DNA from: a bacterium
GTDB lineage: Bacteria; UBP18; UBA7526
NCBI GenBank assembly: GCA_030619985.1
Contig: JAUXAI010000003.1
Coordinates: 1 to 62,354, forward strand
Reading direction: 5' to 3'
DNA: 62,354 bases
Position 1 is the stretch's first letter; every line of letters starts with the position of its first letter. The notes below the pieces were generated by a model. The model was not told the origin of the DNA. It made no database searches and saw only the letters and a program-made list of their open reading frames with translations. The position numbers were made by a program, and so were the translations under genes. Shown one piece after another: positions 15,223 to 59,107 of the stretch.

Positions 15223-15343
15223 AGATTCTCACAGATTGTTTACAGATTCACACAGATCACAGATATTGGATGCTTGATCCTTATTCTTGATAGTTTGATC
15301 GCTCGATAGCTACTCTGTTCACCGATCACTGTTCACTGACCAC
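15220..15343. repeat. Composite repeat tract: CACAGAT x5, CTTGAT-like units and CTGTTCA-like heptamers
   Basis: CACAGAT-like copies at 15220, 15230, 15241, 15251, 15258; ctgttca ccgatca ctgttca ctgacca overlaps the stop of the upstream GT. Confidence 0.8.
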
Positions 15344-32645: not shown

Positions 32646-33295
32646 TCTTCTTTTTCTCTTACAAAGGTTTTCGTTACTACCTGTCCCCTCTCGCCTGGGG
32701 ACCCAAGGGGTTCTCCATTCAACTCCAACTCTATTCCCCCGGCATTCCCTACTCTTATCTCGAGCTTATTCTCCGCTTCCCAGGTCTTTTCATCTCCAGC
32801 CTTCAATAGTTCTTGAATCTCTTCTCTTTCATCAACAGTAATACTCACCCAGACCTCCTCGAGTGCGATTGCCTTCAGGGTAAGGGGGGCTTTCTCCTCT
32901 TCTATAACCTCAACTACTGGTGGGGAAGAGGGGCGAAAGAAAAGAAACCACCCTCCCCAAACGATGAGAACTATTATACTTATTGCTACGGGAAGGATGG
33001 CTAGTCTTTTAGGCCTTATTCTTTTAGGGATTAACCTCTCTGCTACGGGAACTTTGGTGGTTGTCTCTAGATATTTCTTATACTCTCGAACTAATTCATC
33101 GCTATCTAGATTTAAGAAGTTGGCATAGCTGCGCAGGAAGCCCTGGGTATAGGCAGGGGCCGGAAAGACATCCCAGTCCTCTGCTTCTAGGGCTTTTAGA
33201 TATCTAATACTTATCTTTGTCTTCTTACTTATCGTCTTTAATTTTAATCGTCTCTTCTGCCTCGCCTGCTGCAGTGTAAGGCCAATGGGCTCCAC
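32642..33295 (-). CDS. rodZ: RodZ-like cytoskeleton protein (HTH + TM + DUF4115)
   Basis: IGLTLQQARQ...YLKALE...YTQGFLRSYA; VGNAGGIELELNGEPLG. Confidence 0.85.
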   Translation of the reverse strand: MEPIGLTLQQARQKRRLKLKTISKKTKISIRYLKALEAEDWDVFPAPAYTQGFLRSYANFLNLDSDELVREYKKYLETTTKVPVAERLIPKRIRPKRLAILPVAISIIVLIVWGGWFLFFRPSSPPVVEVIEEEKAPLTLKAIALEEVWVSITVDEREEIQELLKAGDEKTWEAENKLEIRVGNAGGIELELNGEPLGSPGERGQVVTKTFVREKEE

Positions 33296-33314
33296 GTTTC
33301 TGCCTCGCTTTAAT

Positions 33315-33706
33315 AGTTTACAGTAACCAGCGAACAGTAACCAGTAAAACTGTAGATTATTAGAACATCAGATTTGGTAAATTCGAAATTCTAATATTGA
33401 AATTAAGCAAAGCTAATAACCAAGATACAAAACACAGTAACCAAACAGATCCCAATATCCAAATTCAAATGCCCAATGCGCTTCGCTAGCATTGGAGAGA
33501 GCATAAATAATTAAGCATTGCCAAAACAGTTTGGTGATTGGTTATTGGTCATTGATTATTGTTTGTATCTTGTTTCTTGGTGTTTGGTTATTTGTATTCA
33601 TTTCGGATTTCGTGCTTCGGATTTTTGAAATTCTGATATCTGTCCTTCTCCATCTGATATACTGGTAATCTGGTACTCTTTTGCTGTTAACTGGTTACTG
33701 GTTACT
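33315..33706. repeat. Long inverted heptamer-repeat element, copy 2, with a 44-bp central insert
   Basis: Outer CAGTAAC/GTTACTG arms; core near-identical to 57840-58025; insert 33477-33520 flanked by CCAA. Confidence 0.9.
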
Positions 33707-35774
33707 CTTTTTTGAGGTAGCTTTCATCAGCCAGTACTTCCCTCACCTTGCTTCCCCTGTAAGGGCCTACTATCCCTTCCTCCTCCATCATATCAATCAA
33801 TCTTGCTGCCCGGGCATAGCCTACCTTTAATCTTCTCTGTAGCATGGAGACCGAGGCCCTTCTGGCCTGGATGACCACCCTCACCGCATCTTGATATAAT
33901 TCGTCCTCCTCCGGGGTGCTGGGTAAGGAAGGAGCAGCCCTTTCGAAGATATCCTCTACATAGACCGGCTCTGCCTGAGAACGGGTAAACTCTGCCATTT
34001 TCTCAATCTCAGGATCAGTAATGAGCGATCCTTGGATACGTATTGGTTTGGCCTTTGAAGGGTCGGAGAAGAGCATATCCCCTCTTCCCAGTAACTTCTC
34101 TGCCCCACTCATATCCAGAACGATGCGGGAATCAACCCTTGCCGCAACCTGAAAGGCGATCCTCACCGGGAAGTTGGCCTTAATGAGACCGGTAATGACA
34201 TCCACGGATGGCCTCTGGGTAGCAAGGACAACATGAATCCCTACTGCCCGAGCCATCTGGGCCAGCCGGGTGATAGTATGCTCACAGTCCACAGGGGCCA
34301 CGAGCATCAGATCGGCTAACTCGTCAATGATCACGATGATATAGGGTATCTTTTCCACCGAGGTTTTGGCATTATAGCTTCCGATATCCCTAGCCCCGGC
34401 CTCAGAGAATAACTTGAACCTCTCTTCTACTTCCCCCACCGCCCACTTCAGAGCAAAAGTTGCCTTCTTGGGGTCAGTGATTACCGGGGTGATGAGATAG
34501 GGAATGTCATTATAGACCTTCAGTTCTACCCTCTTGGGATCGATTAAGAGGAACTTCACCTCATCTGGGGTTGCTTGAAACAGAATGCTATTTATGATGC
34601 AGTTTATACAGACACTCTTCCCGCTTCCTGTGGTTCCGGCAATCAATAAATGGGGCATGGTAGCCAGATCAGCGATTACTGGTCTACCGGCTATATCCTT
34701 TCCCAATGCCAGGGTAAGTTTTGATGGTGACTCATAGAACTCCCTGGTACTCAGAATCTCTGAGAGATAGACAAAGAAAGGCCTCTTATTGGGAACCTCA
34801 ATCCCCAAGGCCGCCTTTCCCGGAATGGGAGCTTCGATACGGATACTGGGGGCAGCCAATTTCAGAGCGATGTCATTAGAACGAGAGGTGATGGAGGAGA
34901 CGGTCACCCCTTTTGCCGGCTGTACCTCAAACCTGGTAATGACCGGCCCCTGTAGAGCACCAATAACCTTGGCCGATATCCCAAACTCAGAGAGAGTCTC
35001 TTCTAGGAGAACGCCCTTTGCCTTAAGGTCCTCTTTCGCCTCCTCTACCTTTGGCTTAGCGAGAAGAGAGAGATCAGGCATAGTATAGGCCTTCTCCTCT
35101 TCTGGAACCTTCTTTGCTATCTTCTTCACTCTCTTAGGGGTAGGAGCAACCTTCTCCTCTTTAATCTCTGGCCTCTTAATTGCTATCGGCTTGGCTGGTC
35201 TCGGTTTCCGGGAAAATATCCCTATTATTCCCCGAAAGAAAGATAGAATCCCCTTTCCTAACAGAAGGAAGAATTTAGGATAGGAGACCTCGGCTGCTAA
35301 AGGTAAAGAGACGACTAATACCGTTACCGCAATGAGATAGGCACCCGAAGCCCCAAAGACCTGCTTCAGTCCATCAGAGAGGACGATTCCCAGATGTCCT
35401 CCCAATGCCAATCTTTTTTCTAAGATTAAAGAATATTTGGAAGAAAGTAATGTACAGGATGAAATAAGAAAGAGGATGACTCCTAAGATTCTGTAGGCCT
35501 TCTTGTGGAACTTCAGCCCCCGAAATCTTCTTATCCCCCAGACAAGAGTCACTAAAATTATAAGATAGGCGCCATAACCCATGACGAAGTTCAGTCCAAA
35601 GGCCAGATAAGCACCAGCCTTCCCCATCCAGTTCACTGCTGGGGTATTGGGTGGCTGCTGATAGTAGGCAATATCCGTTGGCTCATAAGATATGAGACTG
35701 AGAAGAATAAAAATAGTCAGAGCAAATAGGATAATCCCTTCTATCTCACTAATCCTCTTCTCTTTCATTGGCAT
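33702..35774 (-). CDS. ftsK: DNA translocase FtsK
   Basis: N-terminal TMs, PHLLIAGTTGSGKS, ATQRPSVDVITG, gamma domain LQRRLKVGYARAAR. Confidence 0.97.
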   Translation of the reverse strand: MPMKEKRISEIEGIILFALTIFILLSLISYEPTDIAYYQQPPNTPAVNWMGKAGAYLAFGLNFVMGYGAYLIILVTLVWGIRRFRGLKFHKKAYRILGVILFLISSCTLLSSKYSLILEKRLALGGHLGIVLSDGLKQVFGASGAYLIAVTVLVVSLPLAAEVSYPKFFLLLGKGILSFFRGIIGIFSRKPRPAKPIAIKRPEIKEEKVAPTPKRVKKIAKKVPEEEKAYTMPDLSLLAKPKVEEAKEDLKAKGVLLEETLSEFGISAKVIGALQGPVITRFEVQPAKGVTVSSITSRSNDIALKLAAPSIRIEAPIPGKAALGIEVPNKRPFFVYLSEILSTREFYESPSKLTLALGKDIAGRPVIADLATMPHLLIAGTTGSGKSVCINCIINSILFQATPDEVKFLLIDPKRVELKVYNDIPYLITPVITDPKKATFALKWAVGEVEERFKLFSEAGARDIGSYNAKTSVEKIPYIIVIIDELADLMLVAPVDCEHTITRLAQMARAVGIHVVLATQRPSVDVITGLIKANFPVRIAFQVAARVDSRIVLDMSGAEKLLGRGDMLFSDPSKAKPIRIQGSLITDPEIEKMAEFTRSQAEPVYVEDIFERAAPSLPSTPEEDELYQDAVRVVIQARRASVSMLQRRLKVGYARAARLIDMMEEEGIVGPYRGSKVREVLADESYLKKE

Positions 35775-43414: not shown

Positions 43415-43431
43415 ATCGCCTCCCAATTTCC

Positions 43432-43500
43432 CAGTAAGAAGTTAACAGTTTACAGTGTACAGTAAAAAAACTGGTTACTGTTCGCTGGTTACTGGTTACT
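43432..43500. repeat. Inverted CAGTAAC/GTTACTG heptamer element
   Basis: 43470-43494 is identical to 59061-59085 and the reverse complement of 33321-33345. Confidence 0.88.
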
Positions 43501-47932: not shown

Positions 47933-49642
47933 TTACATCTCACGTAAAGACCTGATTTTAGGAATGAGGTCTTTTTTATCGATTTCGTGGACTTTGTTGT
48001 TCTTGCGGATTTTTATTTCGATTTTATTTCCTTTTATTGCCTTGTTGCCGATGGTGATTCTAAGGGGGATACCCATTAAGTCAGCGTCCTTGAACTTCGC
48101 TCCAGCCCTCAAGTCTCTATCATCGAGAAGGATTTCTATCCCCTCTTTCTCTAAAGAATTATAGACCTTTTCTGCTATTTTGATTTGTCTCTTATCCTGG
48201 TTATTTACGATTAAAACTAAAACCTGATAAGGGGCAATTGAAAGCGGCCAGATGATTCCATTTTCATCATGATTCTGTTCTATGCTAGCAGCCATTATCC
48301 TATCCAGACCGATGCCGTAGCAGCCCATGATCATGGGTTTCTCTTTTCCTTTCTCATCCAAGAAGGTAGCCTTCAAAACCTGGGAATATTTGGTTCCCAG
48401 TTTGAAGACATGGCCCACCTCAATCCCTCGGGAGAAGGTAAGTTTTGTCTTACACTTAGGGCAGAGATCTTCGGGAATGACACTCCTTATATCCAAGATC
48501 CTATCTACCTTGAAGTCCCGGTCGATATTGATATTGATCAAGTGGTAATCCTTCTCATTGGCCCCACTAATCATATTCTTCATACTGGCTACATCAGAAT
48601 CAGCAATAATCTTAATCTTCAGTCCCACCGGGCCACTAAATCCTAAAGAAGCACTGGTTACTTTCTCAATGGTCTTTTCATCTGCTAAGAGAATTTCCTT
48701 CGCTTTCAGTAACTTCTCCAATCTTCTCTCGTTTACCCCATGGTCTCCTCTAATTAGAATGGCAATTGGCTTTCCATCTACCTTATAGATCAGGGTCTTC
48801 ACCAGATCCTTCGGCTTGCACTTCAAGAATCCAGTCACCTCTTCTACGCTCTTCATCCCCGGTGTCTTCACCTTCTTTAATGGTTTTTCTTTTACCGATG
48901 ACTGGTGACCGGTGACCGGTGACCGGTGATATTCTGCCCGATTAACATTCGCCGCATAGCCACACTTCTTGCAGTAGACTATTTGGTCCTCTCCTGTCTT
49001 GGCTAAGACCATGAACTCATGGGAGACATCCCCACCGATAGGGCCAGTATCTGCTTCCACCGCCTTATACTTCAGTCCGCACCTATCGAAGATATTTTGA
49101 TATGTCTGATACATTTTCTTATAATTCTTCTCCAGGTCCTTTTCATTCCTATCGAAGGAATAGGCGTCCTTCATATGGAACTCCCGGGCCCTCATCATCC
49201 CGAAACGAGGCCTTATCTCATCCCGGAACTTGGTCTGGATCTGATAGAGAGTAAGAGGAAGCTGTCTATAGGATTTTACCTCCCTTCTTGCCAAATCAGT
49301 GATTACCTCTTCATGGGTCGGTCCCAAACCGAATAATCTATTATGCCTATCCTTTATTCTCATAAGTTCCGGACCATAGACCTCCCATCTTCCGCTCTCT
49401 TCCCATAATTCCTGAGGGCTCAATGTGGGAAGGAGGACCTCTTGGGCTCCCGTCTTATTCATCTCTTCCCGTATGATATTTTCTATCTTTCTTATCACTC
49501 TATAGCCCAGAGGGAGATAGGTATATATTCCAGAGGCCAATTTTCTCATCAGCCCTGCCCGGATCATAAGTTTATGGCTTACAATCTTCGCCTCTTTCGG
49601 TGCTTCCTTCAATGTAGGAAACAACCCTTTTGACATTCTCAT
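47933..49642 (-). CDS. proS: Proline--tRNA ligase (bacterial type with INS editing domain)
   Basis: LGPTHEE, QTKFRDEIRPRFG, IEVGHVFKLG, MGCYGIG. Confidence 0.98.
   Translation of the reverse strand: MRMSKGLFPTLKEAPKEAKIVSHKLMIRAGLMRKLASGIYTYLPLGYRVIRKIENIIREEMNKTGAQEVLLPTLSPQELWEESGRWEVYGPELMRIKDRHNRLFGLGPTHEEVITDLARREVKSYRQLPLTLYQIQTKFRDEIRPRFGMMRAREFHMKDAYSFDRNEKDLEKNYKKMYQTYQNIFDRCGLKYKAVEADTGPIGGDVSHEFMVLAKTGEDQIVYCKKCGYAANVNRAEYHRSPVTGHQSSVKEKPLKKVKTPGMKSVEEVTGFLKCKPKDLVKTLIYKVDGKPIAILIRGDHGVNERRLEKLLKAKEILLADEKTIEKVTSASLGFSGPVGLKIKIIADSDVASMKNMISGANEKDYHLININIDRDFKVDRILDIRSVIPEDLCPKCKTKLTFSRGIEVGHVFKLGTKYSQVLKATFLDEKGKEKPMIMGCYGIGLDRIMAASIEQNHDENGIIWPLSIAPYQVLVLIVNNQDKRQIKIAEKVYNSLEKEGIEILLDDRDLRAGAKFKDADLMGIPLRITIGNKAIKGNKIEIKIRKNNKVHEIDKKDLIPKIRSLREM
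48894..48928. repeat. In-frame heptamer repeat (ACCGGTG-like x5) inside proS
   Basis: accgatg actggtg accggtg accggtg accggtg; encodes HRSPVTGHQSSV. Confidence 0.9.
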
Positions 49643-49668
49643 AATAATCTCCCAATAGTCTCTTTTTC

Positions 49669-49712
49669 GTTGATCAGTTGAGTCAGTTAAGCCCGTTTGG
49701 ACAGTTTGGCCC
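49669..49712. repeat. 3' repeat arm of the four-helix-bundle element (GTCAGTT-like on +)
   Basis: gttgatca gttgagtca gttaagccc gtttggaca gtttggccc. Confidence 0.75.
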
Positions 49713-50064
49713 GTAGATAACGGGTGAGGCCATCTATCAACTTTCTTGTCTTCTCTGCCTGCTGATATACCTTCTCAAATTGTTCTTTGCTAATGTAATT
49801 CTGATCTAAGGCAATGTATAAACAAGATTGAACCTCTCCAGTCGATCTTCTAGCATAGTTTAAAAACCTTATGAATTCTCTATTCGACTGACTAGTGAAT
49901 CCTTCTGCGATATTATTCATTGTTGAAATGGCTGCTCCAGTAGTTTGGCCCTGAAGTCGATAATCCTTAGAAAATAGTTTCTGCTTAACTAGATCGTAAA
50001 CCATCTTTGTTAAAATCCTTGCTTCCTGCCAACACTGTAGATCTTCAAATCTCTTAATCTTCAT
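49687..50064 (-). CDS. Four helix bundle protein (23S rRNA intervening-sequence protein family, Avd-like fold)
   Basis: RFEDLQCWQEA, DYRLQGQ, STMNNIAEG, EFIRFLNYARRSTGEVQSCLYIALDQNYI are characteristic family motifs. Confidence 0.92.
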   Translation of the reverse strand: MKIKRFEDLQCWQEARILTKMVYDLVKQKLFSKDYRLQGQTTGAAISTMNNIAEGFTSQSNREFIRFLNYARRSTGEVQSCLYIALDQNYISKEQFEKVYQQAEKTRKLIDGLTRYLRAKLSKRA

Positions 50065-50077
50065 CCCATCACTTTCT

Positions 50078-50116
50078 TAACTAGCTAAACTGACAAACTG
50101 ACTAAACTGACAAAAC
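50078..50116. repeat. 5' repeat arm of the four-helix-bundle element (AAACTGAC on +)
   Basis: taactagct aaactgac aaactgact aaactgac aaaac; contains the ispG stop. Confidence 0.85.
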
Positions 50117-51166
50117 GTTTTTTATTTCTTTCAAGAGTGTAGAGACTAAATCTTTCTCTTTTACCTTCTTTATTACTCTGCCTTTTCTGAAGATTACCCC
50201 TATCTTCTCTCCTCCCGCAATGCCGATGTCTGCTTCCCTTGCCTCTCCTGGGCCATTCACCACACAACCCATTATGGCCACTTTTAAGGATATTGAACAT
50301 TGAACATTGAACATTGAATAATTTAATCTTCTTTCTACTTCTTTTGCTATTTTAATCAAGTCTATCTCGCAGCGGCCACAGGTGGGACAGGCGATGATCT
50401 CAATCCCTTTCCGTAATCCTAAAGCTCTCAATATCTCATGGCCCACCCTTACCTCTTCCTGGGGTGGACCAGTGAGAGAGACCCTGATAGTATCCCCTAT
50501 TCCTTCAAGCAGTAGGCTTCCGATTCCCAGGGCAGACTTAATTATTCCCGAGGGAGGAAGGCCAGTAGCCGTTATCCCCAGATGAAGGGGGTAGTTACAT
50601 CTCTTAGCCATCAAGCGATAGGCCTCTATGGTAGTTAAAACATCGCTTGCTTTTAGAGAGACAATGATCTCGTAGAATTTCTCTTTTTCAAATATCTTTA
50701 TAGAGTCTTGGGCACTTCTTACCATGGCTTGGGCTAAAGGACCTTTATATCTCTTTCTATCGAGGGAACCGGAGTTTACCCCGATCCTTATGGGAATTCC
50801 CTTCTCTTTTGCTTTCCTTATAATCTGAATAATCTTCTCTTTGTCTCTGATATTCCCGGGGTTTATCCTTATGCCATCTGCTCCATTTTCCAGGGCTTCC
50901 AGGGCCAACCGATAATCGAAGTGAATATCGGCAATTAAGGGAATCTTAATTTTCTTCTTTATCTTAGAGATTACCCTCGCTGCCTCCCGATCTGGAATGG
51001 CAACCCTTATGATCTCACACCCCTCTTTTTCTAACTCTTTAATCTGTTTAACTGTTGCTTTTATATCTCTGGTGTCTGTCTTGGTCATGGACTGAACAGA
51101 GACTGGTGCTCCACCACCAACAGCTACTTTGCCTATCTTGACTCTTCTACTTCGCCTTCTCTTCAT
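50102..51166 (-). CDS. ispG: (E)-4-hydroxy-3-methylbut-2-enyl-diphosphate synthase
   Basis: VSVQSMT, IADIHFDY, RINPGN, CPTCGR, MGCVVNGPGE. Confidence 0.97.
   Translation of the reverse strand: MKRRRSRRVKIGKVAVGGGAPVSVQSMTKTDTRDIKATVKQIKELEKEGCEIIRVAIPDREAARVISKIKKKIKIPLIADIHFDYRLALEALENGADGIRINPGNIRDKEKIIQIIRKAKEKGIPIRIGVNSGSLDRKRYKGPLAQAMVRSAQDSIKIFEKEKFYEIIVSLKASDVLTTIEAYRLMAKRCNYPLHLGITATGLPPSGIIKSALGIGSLLLEGIGDTIRVSLTGPPQEEVRVGHEILRALGLRKGIEIIACPTCGRCEIDLIKIAKEVERRLNYSMFNVQCSISLKVAIMGCVVNGPGEAREADIGIAGGEKIGVIFRKGRVIKKVKEKDLVSTLLKEIKNVLSV
50292..50319. repeat. In-frame heptamer repeat (ATTGAAC x4) inside ispG
   Basis: Encodes YSMFNVQCSI. Confidence 0.9.
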
Positions 51167-57780: not shown

Positions 57781-58078
57781 GAAATTCCAAATACCAATAT
57801 CTAAACATCAAGATACAAGAGACAATAACCAAACAAATTCCAATATCCAAATTTAAATACCCAATGCGCTTCGCTAGCATTGGAGAGAGCATAAATAAAA
57901 TAATTAAGCATTGCCAAAACAGTTTGGTGATTGGTTATTGGTCATTGAGTATTGTTTGCCCATCCTCCGCAGTAGCAGTGCAACTGCTACGGAGGATGGA
58001 TATCTTGTTTCTTGGTGTTTGGTTATTAATCGTTTTTGGTTAGAGTTTCGGATTTCTTATTTGAAATTTGTGATTTAT
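57781..58078. repeat. Long inverted heptamer-repeat element, copy 3, in the rpsB 5' region, with two inserts
   Basis: Core shared with 33452-33590; inserts at 57865-57913 and 57959-58000. Confidence 0.9.
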
Positions 58079-59003: not shown

Positions 59004-59025
59004 TTGCTCCTCACTTCGTTCGGAT

Positions 59026-59090
59026 AGTAACCAGTAACCAGGTTACAGTGAATAGAAAAGACTGGTTACTGTTCGCTGGTTACTGTAAAC
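59026..59090. repeat. Inverted CAGTAAC/GTTACTG heptamer element between topA and xerC
   Basis: 59061-59090 is the exact reverse complement of 33316-33345. Confidence 0.88.
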
Positions 59091-59107
59091 CTCTATTTCA
59101 CCGATCG

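Follow-up and report, generated by a model that had tools for sequence, protein, structure and literature searches.

The DNA analysed here, hereafter the window, is a 62,354-nt stretch of contig JAUXAI010000003.1 (assembly GCA_030619985.1) from a bacterium of the lineage UBA7526 (UBP18). Its genome, 84% complete, is referred to as G000, and the comparison genomes are numbered from G001 on, with G002 belonging to the same genus and G003 to genus g2. On the minus strand of the window, the genes dxr, rseP, ispG, proS, rimP, and nusA follow one another in this order, and a small open reading frame (ORF) is wedged between ispG and proS, whose products are identified by NCBIfam as IspG (E 4.9e-143) and ProS (E 3.3e-249). 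This ORF is bordered on each side by an array of short tandem repeats, and the two arrays are complementary to each other; arms, ribosome-binding stretch, and ORF together make up the cassette that is the subject of this study (Table 1). A first-pass annotation, made from the letters of the window, had described a four-helix-bundle gene enclosed by inverted repeat arms inside a housekeeping operon, and the gene and its position are confirmed by the ORF list, by the identity of its neighbours, and by the matches to PF05635 and TIGR02436 presented below. Rfam returned no match anywhere in the window at the gathering threshold, and PADLOC none for the cassette protein.

Table 1. The cassette, its parts, and the adjacent genes in the window, followed by two sites elsewhere in the studied genome at which a relative holds a different cassette
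Feature	Position	Strand	Remarks
Whole cassette (5' arm, ribosome-binding stretch, ORF, and 3' arm)	49672..50117	minus	446 nt without counterpart in relatives (blastn limits)
Cassette ORF	49687..50064	minus	125 aa, between ispG and proS
5' arm	50078..50116	minus	Three tandem GTCAGTT(T) units, then AGCTAGTT; from Tandem Repeats Finder, inverted-pair search, and fold
Purine-rich stretch AAGAAAGTGATGGG	50065..50077	minus	From 5' arm to ATG; probable ribosome-binding site, part of which is paired in the predicted structure
3' arm	49669..49712	minus	AACTGAC / AACTGAT units from the TAA of the ORF, plus the last codons of the ORF
ispG	50102..51166	minus	Upstream operon gene; last codons and stop within the 5' arm
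proS	47933..49642	minus	Downstream gene; start 44 nt past the cassette ORF
Site on contig C42	G000:C42:68390-68764		Different cassette (other subfamily, other arms) at the same site in G005 (L078)
Site on contig C86	G000:C86:24499-24927		Different cassette (other subfamily, other arms) at the same site in G003 (L071)

On the mRNA strand, the 5' side of the ORF reads GTCAGTTTAGTCAGTTTGTCAGTTTAG, with the ispG stop codon TAG (50102-50104) inside it, and the 3' side reads TTAACTGACTCAACTGATCAAC, beginning at the ORF's own TAA. Tandem Repeats Finder reports a period of 8 for the former (50087-50114, 3.4 copies) and of 9 for the latter (49669-49688, 2.4 copies), and an inverted-pair search finds complementary stretches between the two, one of 15 nt (93%) and one of 23 nt (78%), 384-407 nt apart. 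The GTCAGTT-type repeats ahead of the ORF and the complementary AACTGAC-like repeats behind it are thus as they had been described, each containing one of the two stop codons. Neither arm is a complete hairpin; both are one-sided arrays. When positions 49655-50125 of the minus strand are folded, the arms pair in the minimum-free-energy (MFE) structure as well as in the centroid (-112.1 kcal/mol, z -2.36, with 1 of 100 shuffles as stable), and the ribosome-binding stretch finds its partner in the final codons of the ORF. Both the fold and the inverted-pair search indicate terminal inverted repeats able to form a stem around the ORF, as in the intervening sequences (IVSs) of 23S rRNA, and the stem with the ORF in its loop that had been proposed for the transcript is indeed predicted. 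These arms are real but modest in strength, with an upstream/downstream complementarity score of 28, the 55th highest among 1195 ORFs. Across the window, GTCAGTT is present eight times for 4.4 +/- 2.3 expected, a number reached by 9 of 100 shuffles, and is thus not enriched; four of the eight copies fall within the 446-nt cassette.

To our knowledge, no function has been assigned to PF05635/TIGR02436 genes, which are very common and often number many in one genome; the 23S IVS is the only context in which they have been explained. The cassette ORF matches both families well above their cut-offs (PF05635, E 3.7e-31, 107.9 bits for a cut-off of 33.8; TIGR02436, E 8.2e-29, 100 bits for a cut-off of 24). 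An AlphaFold2 model computed from 37 subfamily sequences (pLDDT 95.3) has helices at residues 10-27, 35-57, 61-87, and 93-124. Foldseek ranks XCC0516 first (2GSC, TM 0.84/0.91), which is also retrieved by sequence with phmmer (E 3.3e-10), and BT_0352 second (2RLD, TM 0.77/0.88), followed by Avd, a protein of diversity-generating retroelements (DGRs; 4DWL, TM 0.74/0.85; 8UB7 chain B, 0.77/0.79), with which the cassette protein shares ~9% sequence identity. All 12 columns that are invariant in the 37-sequence subfamily alignment are kept in the cassette protein. Of the motif GxxRxxxSxxxNxxE noted by Zhang and Ye (2013; PMC3936711), S47, N51, and E54 are present, and Gly43 takes the position of the Arg, which is the majority residue (about half) in a 67-sequence alignment of the subfamily. 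2GSC and Avd are known to be pentamers (PMC4990558; bioRxiv 10.1101/2023.10.23.563531). Both the membership in the family of 23S-IVS proteins and the Avd-like fold, which the first-pass annotation had asserted, are hence upheld by profile, model, and structure search.

The likeness to Avd raises the question of whether the gene could be an avd gene left behind after a DGR lost its reverse transcriptase and template repeat. Avd is described as a pentamer in the shape of a barrel, "similar to S23 ribosomal proteins", which grips RNA stem-loops, and in the DGR RNA the 3' end of avd is described as forming a long-range duplex with RNA downstream of it (bioRxiv 10.1101/2023.10.23.563531). The modelled four-helix-bundle fold is what the cassette protein has in common with Avd. 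Unlike Avd systems, however, the cassette comes with no reverse transcriptase (PF00078 is without match in the whole genome) and no template or variable repeats, its neighbours are ispG and proS, its closest structures are the non-DGR proteins 2GSC and 2RLD, and ten copies of the gene lie in operon spacers. A DGR remnant is thus hardly credible.

Arms of the same kind are found around the other members of the gene family. The studied genome has ten PF05635 genes, and when the 100 nt upstream of each ORF are aligned locally with the reverse complement of the 100 nt downstream, all ten lie at or above the 95th percentile of the 1185 other ORFs (ranks 3 to 78 of 1195; Mann-Whitney p 7e-8). The arms differ from locus to locus: matched arms score 35.3 on average, versus 19.7 for mismatched pairs, and the true partner is the best one in 7 of 10 rows and 9 of 10 columns, the exceptions being paralogous cassettes. 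This bears on a trivial explanation, namely that chance has placed an ordinary small gene between two short tandem repeats, of which the intergenic DNA of this genome has many. There are 80 tandem-repeat rows in the window, the lack of GTCAGTT enrichment goes in the same direction, and many ordinary genes score high as well. The latter do so because complete CACAGAT/ATCTGTG hairpins, which form one genome-wide family, flank them in both adjoining spacers, whereas the arms of the cassette are one-sided arrays and all ten paralogs have matched, mostly locus-specific arms. In addition, arms and ORF are gained or lost jointly, as described below, and the pattern persists in genomes with few tandem arrays (G009, G015, and G016). 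Coincidence therefore appears very improbable.

The enrichment extends beyond the studied genome. PF05635 matches over the cut-off in this genome and 30 others number 80, of which 58 were analysed, and 40 of these 58 loci (studied genome and 11 others) score above the 95th percentile of mismatched pairs. This holds for 25 of the 33 loci of this bacterial family, two of the 33 being cut by contig ends, and for 15 of the 25 loci from seven genomes of other families. When metagenomes were searched with the cassette protein, they gave 80 loci at 43-74% identity, 71 of them with sufficient flank; 37 of the 71 exceed the 95th percentile (p 3e-19), a threshold that is conservative here since arms within this subfamily resemble each other. 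The first-pass annotation had named inverted repeat flanks around other family members as a check, and a lack of their enrichment as a refutation; they are strongly enriched in all three samples, so that this check does not refute it.

Within the subfamily of the cassette protein, the arms have a period of 8-9 nt (autocorrelation 0.378 and 0.354, versus ~0.27 at other lags) and a polarity: of 71 loci, 28 have GTT periodicity and 10 AAC periodicity in the 5' flank, and 25 have AAC periodicity and 5 GTT periodicity in the 3' flank. The corresponding controls give 1 and 0 for shuffles, and 4 and 7 of 58 for the mixed-subfamily set. An AT-rich subfamily carries CAAAT-type arms, even in distant genomes. 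Two departures from the usual layout were also observed. The distant genome G022 has 19 short PF05635 matches (L114-L121) with frames of ~100 aa in divergent pairs, a layout unlike that of the cassettes. One four-helix-bundle copy of the studied genome (G000:C69:22208-22975, L003) has no stop codon before its 3' arm and reads through it (..SDSPIPPFSDS..) into a pseudopilin-like gene (GFTLIEV), while its G002 orthologue has a TGA ahead of the 3' arm.

The ispG-proS junction of relatives defines the limits of the cassette. In a blastn comparison with G002 (L011/L031/L123), whose ispG is 88% identical, homology ends at window position 50118 and restarts at 49671, and the 446 nt in between are exactly the arms plus the ORF. 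The limits are the same in G005; in G001 homology also ends at 50118, and restarts further downstream, near 49643. The C-terminal residues of IspG likewise diverge from those of G002 from the cassette boundary on. At this site, G002 has 124 nt of a different hairpin, with arms GTCAGTCC/GTCCATCC and a 9-nt loop, of a family that is also found at contig C27 of the studied genome, and the junctions of G001 and G005 are occupied by other repeat hairpins. In G003, the same gene is found at the same site in a decayed form, in which a Trp codon reads TGA and ~113 nt are missing from the interior; relative to the window, its shortened arms show a paired A>G / T>C change. Contigs from the public DNA runs X2 and X5, ~90% like the window, join 49671 to 50132 with 157 other letters between; they are not independent of G002, as they may come from the same species. 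A contig from run X3 has the cassette, unchanged; no RNA run was listed as containing the sequence. The gene is thus intact in G000 and X3, decayed in G003, and absent from G001, G002, G005, X2, and X5, so that the comparison of this junction for empty sites, which had been proposed at the outset, shows that it is not fixed.

At other loci, the same units are found in new surroundings. Arms-plus-ORF blocks of 445-468 nt match those of other genomes at 87-96% identity within flanks that lack homology: compared with G005, the C46 block matches over 468 nt at 95.7% and the C47 block over 465 nt at 87%, and compared with G001, the block at C69:33256 matches over 445 nt at 93.5% and that on C9 over 468 nt at 90%. 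There are also two intergenic sites whose flanking genes are 82-87% identical and at which segments of 483 nt and 536 nt hold different cassettes with no detectable homology (Table 1). The ratio of non-synonymous to synonymous divergence (dN/dS) is 0.01-0.11 in five cassette pairs. Two copies within the studied genome differ by a dS of 0.54 and a dN of 0.007, and their arms are 86-91% identical (count on the alignment), versus ~62% for unconstrained sites (Jukes-Cantor arithmetic). Arms and ORF travel together as one unit, and the ORFs are under strong purifying selection. That we are dealing with a discrete cassette whose arms belong with the ORF is accordingly very probable.

Strong selection on the ORFs could also mean that the stem and the small protein serve the host, by modulating the processing or translation of the ispG-proS operon, and are kept for this benefit. 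Translation could be coupled, given that ispG has its stop codon within the 5' arm and that the predicted fold pairs part of the ribosome-binding stretch. Moreover, this genome has many tandem-repeat hairpins directly ahead of ribosome-binding sites: among 617 spacers of 50-450 nt, 206 exceed all 20 of their shuffles in self-complementarity, for ~29 expected, and the same score is reached by 8 of 318 coding controls. A device of the ispG-proS operon is nonetheless difficult to reconcile with a cassette that is missing at this site in three relatives and decayed in a fourth, with the same kind of cassette between unrelated genes elsewhere, or with one site holding different cassettes in different genomes; in addition, 10 of the 80 over-cut-off matches have in-frame stops. 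A host function of this type is thus improbable.

Orientation is a further feature of the cassettes. All ten copies in the studied genome are co-oriented with both neighbours, with gaps mostly of 29-97 nt, and so are 26 of 38 metagenomic loci. Since adjacent genes of the studied genome lie on the same strand in 1035 of 1196 pairs, an insert of random orientation would agree with both neighbours in at most ~43% of cases, and ten copies would all do so with a probability of ~2e-4 by our own arithmetic.

These properties recall the IVSs of 23S rRNA. The IVS of Coxiella is described as an insert of 428-444 nt at a helix tip of 23S rRNA, with an S23p ORF and terminal repeats forming a 28-bp stem that RNase III cleaves; the same paper discusses whether this IVS is selfish or was once mobile (PMC4990558). 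IVSs with S23p ORFs are reported from Leptospira, from Coxiella, and as a Xanthomonas type (Ralph and McClelland, 1993, as cited in PMC4990558). The cassette is like them in its PF05635 ORF, in its similar size, in its stem-closing terminal inverted repeats, in its sense insertion within a host transcript, and in its sporadic presence among relatives. It differs in its location, which is an mRNA spacer and not an rRNA helix tip; in its arms, which are tandem 8-9-nt units and weaker (15 nt at 93%, versus a 28-bp stem); and in its number, ten copies in the genome as opposed to one per rRNA operon. Finally, cleavage by RNase III is known for the IVS, while the stem of the cassette is a prediction.

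By analogy with the IVS, the cassette would be transcribed with its host operon, without a promoter of its own. Its arms would pair in the transcript and enclose the ribosome-binding site and the ORF in a loop, as the terminal repeats of the 23S IVS do, and the resulting stem may be the target of double-strand RNA processing, of binding by the encoded protein, or of both. The insert could thereby be expressed and tolerated without harm to ispG or proS. The sense-only orientation, the polarity of the arms, the start of the 3' arm at the stop codon, the position of the ribosome-binding stretch in the loop, and the RNase III gene that the studied genome encodes all fit such a role in the transcript.

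Several results weigh against it. An RNA stem is expected to tolerate G:U but not A:C mispairs, so that their relative numbers on the sense strand can be used as a test. Overall, the arms have 121 G:U for 97 A:C (p 0.12); neither this bacterial family (65 to 69) nor the metagenomic set (111 to 129) shows an excess, and only the 15 loci from distant genomes lean toward G:U, with bare counts of 56 to 28 to which no significance figure is attached. Native arm pairs do not score clearly above pairs swapped between orthologues, and one orthologous pair has two uncompensated changes in an 18-bp stem. The arms of the ispG-proS cassette are themselves weak, both in their pairing and in their rank, and 18 of 58 and 34 of 71 loci fail to pass the control threshold. 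The 22 matches excluded before counting (15 short G022 matches with a different layout and seven partial or contig-edge ones) must be borne in mind as well. Lastly, RNAduplex energies of the 100-nt flanks, a measure that was replaced by the local complementarity alignment, do not separate the family from other genes (median of all genes -30.9 kcal/mol; the cassette ORF is 607th of 1195). Of the earlier proposal of an mRNA-level, IVS-like or repeat-mobilised cassette, what stands is therefore the family, the closable arms, their enrichment, and the non-fixed site; the G:U excess that an RNA stem would leave is absent in this bacterial family. For the full reading as an IVS-type selfish cassette of operon spacers, RNA stem included, we see belief and doubt as evenly balanced.

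Its main rival is that the arms act on DNA, as terminal inverted repeats of a small non-autonomous element comparable to a miniature inverted-repeat transposable element (MITE) with an ORF. The mover would be an enzyme supplied in trans, or the four-helix-bundle protein itself acting on DNA hairpins, and RNA pairing would be a by-product. As in a MITE or an inverted-repeat transposon, terminal inverted repeats bound a unit that is found at unrelated, non-homologous loci, and different cassettes can take the same site. The lack of a G:U excess in this bacterial family and in the metagenomic set fits a DNA role, the arms are imperfect, with ~11% transversions when aligned, and within a protein subfamily conservation extends to the sequence of the arms and is not limited to their complementarity. 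Small nuclease genes, moreover, lie in similar hairpin contexts (three of four PDDEXK_3 genes, and one of six displayed GIY-YIG matches, there being seven in all).

However, the strict sense orientation of the ten copies is unexpected of a DNA transposon, three copies show no target-site duplication at their ends, and the copies are old, differing by dS values of 0.16-0.67, and not near-identical as MITE copies would be. There is no match in the 84%-complete genome for a reverse transcriptase (PF00078), a Y1/HUH transposase (PF01797), or 23S (LSU) rRNA, DDE transposases not having been searched for; this is in line with the earlier remark that no rRNA, reverse transcriptase, or transposase lies nearby. 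A DNA-level role of the arms stays a serious rival, which we regard as possible though somewhat unlikely. The comparison with systems of repetitive extragenic palindromes (REP/REPIN-RAYT) and with MITEs is similarly divided: a gene or short element between inverted repeats, dispersed intergenic copies, and at least one ORF-less version sharing the arms are common to all, whereas the absence of a Y1/HUH transposase from the genome, arms that are locus-specific rather than of one family, diverged copies, and the absence of target-site duplications set the cassettes apart.

The PDDEXK_3 nuclease genes, of the GxxExxY type, are located at G000:C87:986-1363, C4:6912-7283, C33:7758-8102, and C42:61648-61986, and a small GIY-YIG gene at C69:30455-30802. 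The latter and three of the four former are bracketed by inverted arms or duplicated hairpins, much like the four-helix-bundle genes. Another GIY-YIG ORF, split over the end of contig C77 and the start of contig C23, lies between a partial 5' tRNA half and a complete copy of that tRNA, an arrangement that could be due to insertion at a tRNA gene or to an assembly effect.

The first-pass annotation had further supposed that the inverted-repeat hairpins found across the window are empty members of the same element family. This idea is weakly supported. In its favour, both arms of the C46 cassette recur in their proper order in one ORF-less spacer (33286-33711), the 5' arm with 25 of 25 nt and the 3' arm with 20 of 22 nt, and what they enclose there is different. 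On the other hand, what relatives have at the ispG-proS site are hairpins of other families and not cassette arms, and among 25 distant genomes the density of tandem arrays near ispG is not correlated with the copy number of PF05635 genes (Spearman -0.12, p 0.55; Mann-Whitney p 0.44; ~20 kb per genome), G009, G015, and G022 being rich in these genes with few tandem arrays in the sampled 20 kb. Because the site hairpins are unrelated, gene-rich genomes can be poor in arrays, and no correlation is seen, the arms look like a property of the cassette, and the hairpin load like a separate property of the lineage.

This hairpin load has features of its own. Intergenic hairpins with tandem 7-8-nt arms belong to several families (CACAGAT/ATCTGTG, CGCGAAT, and GTAACCAG, among others), often lie just before the next ribosome-binding site, and are in some cases nested like the layers of an onion; examples in the window are found at 2580-2837, 15223-15325, 43427-43500, and 59004-59107. 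Some have at their tip a conserved non-coding core of ~55 nt, which begins with ..GCAATGCTTAATTATTTATGCTCTCT.., ends in a small stem-loop, and has no Rfam match. Seven copies within three mismatches and one variant of this core were found, at ~33465-33525 and 57860-57925 of the window (both minus strand) and on contigs C6, C8, C29, C47, C57, and C79 of G000, and the two copies in the window are alike over 150 nt (91% identity).

Short tandem repeats also enter coding regions at two points of the operon. Within ispG, positions 50292-50318 hold an in-frame tandem heptamer (ATTGAAC x3.9 on the plus strand) encoding ..MFNVQCSIS... In relatives, other repeats take this point: a GGTTTACGG-type array in G002, and in both G001 and G005 a hairpin-like insert of ~85 nt that keeps the frame and belongs to the family of the hairpin found at the ispG-proS junction of G001. 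The X2 and X5 contigs have 100 other letters in place of 50284-50334. Within proS, ACCGGTG is repeated 5.1 times in frame at 48894-48929, and G001 and G003 have different tandem units at the same protein position, making this a second coding site of repeat turnover.

A possible precedent for such repeats is the TAACTGA heptamer, reported as intergenic direct repeats in Beggiatoaceae, Cyanobacteria, and Bacteroidetes (MacGregor, 2015; PMC4679880). The units are described there as tandem 7-nt repeats just before start codons, with reverse copies in frame in variable protein loops and with indels in steps of one unit. The studied genome has all three features (tandem units, in-frame copies, and unit-step indels), and the 3' arm of the cassette contains TTAACTGAC. 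Unlike the inverted arms of the cassette, the TAACTGA repeats are almost exclusively direct (169 sets, versus one indirect repeat; PMC4679880). The main text of that paper, its supplementary tables being outside this scope, has no occurrence of "23S", "four helix", or "S23", and hence no link to PF05635. Of 71 relatives of the cassette protein, only one has at least two exact TAACTGA copies in its flanks, and the link is a lead rather than a finding.

Family members have also been reported in other operons. 23S_rRNA_IVP genes occur inside cas operons, for instance between cmr3 and cmr2 (Zhang and Ye, 2013; PMC3936711), and PF05635 genes are listed among CRISPR-linked genes (PMC10910872). These cases resemble the present one in that a small PF05635 gene is wedged into an unrelated operon. 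As far as their open text goes, the papers dealing with PF05635 genes in cas operons and in rRNA insertions (PMC3936711, PMC11270868, and PMC10910872) do not mention flanking repeats, and full-text searches of the open literature, which leave aside subscription journals and supplementary files, yielded no description of repeat arms around PF05635 genes outside rRNA. The position in cas operons is read as a functional association in the text of two of these papers (PMC3936711 and PMC10910872), for which insertion of a cassette may offer another explanation.

Pushed further, PF05635 genes could be the cargo, and perhaps the specificity factor, of widespread mobile cassettes without a transposase. 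The pentamer would recognise the 8-9-nt units of its own arms, as RNA or single-stranded DNA, and thereby aid persistence of the cassette or its spread to hairpin-like sites in transcribed DNA; the 23S IVS would then be a special case at an rRNA helix tip, and the "association" with cas genes and CRISPR a by-product of insertion and repeat arms. We offer this extension as speculation and consider it unlikely as it stands.

Taken together, the data suggest a selfish gene cassette of the IVS type, for which the open full texts searched hold no description outside rRNA. Copies of the family outside rRNA are usually packaged like the ORFs of 23S IVSs, with inverted, periodic arms hugging the ORF, and these cassettes behave as discrete, strongly constrained units that are gained, lost, and replaced between conserved genes. 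This packaging gives the PF05635 family a testable biology, in which arms and protein can be assayed for binding, for cleavage by RNase III, and for the insulation of a reporter. It is also a warning against reading the position of PF05635 genes in operons, such as cas loci, as a functional link. More generally, this small-genome lineage, whose spacers and even coding regions are invaded by hairpins of short tandem repeats, would be a good system in which to study the origins of such repeats.

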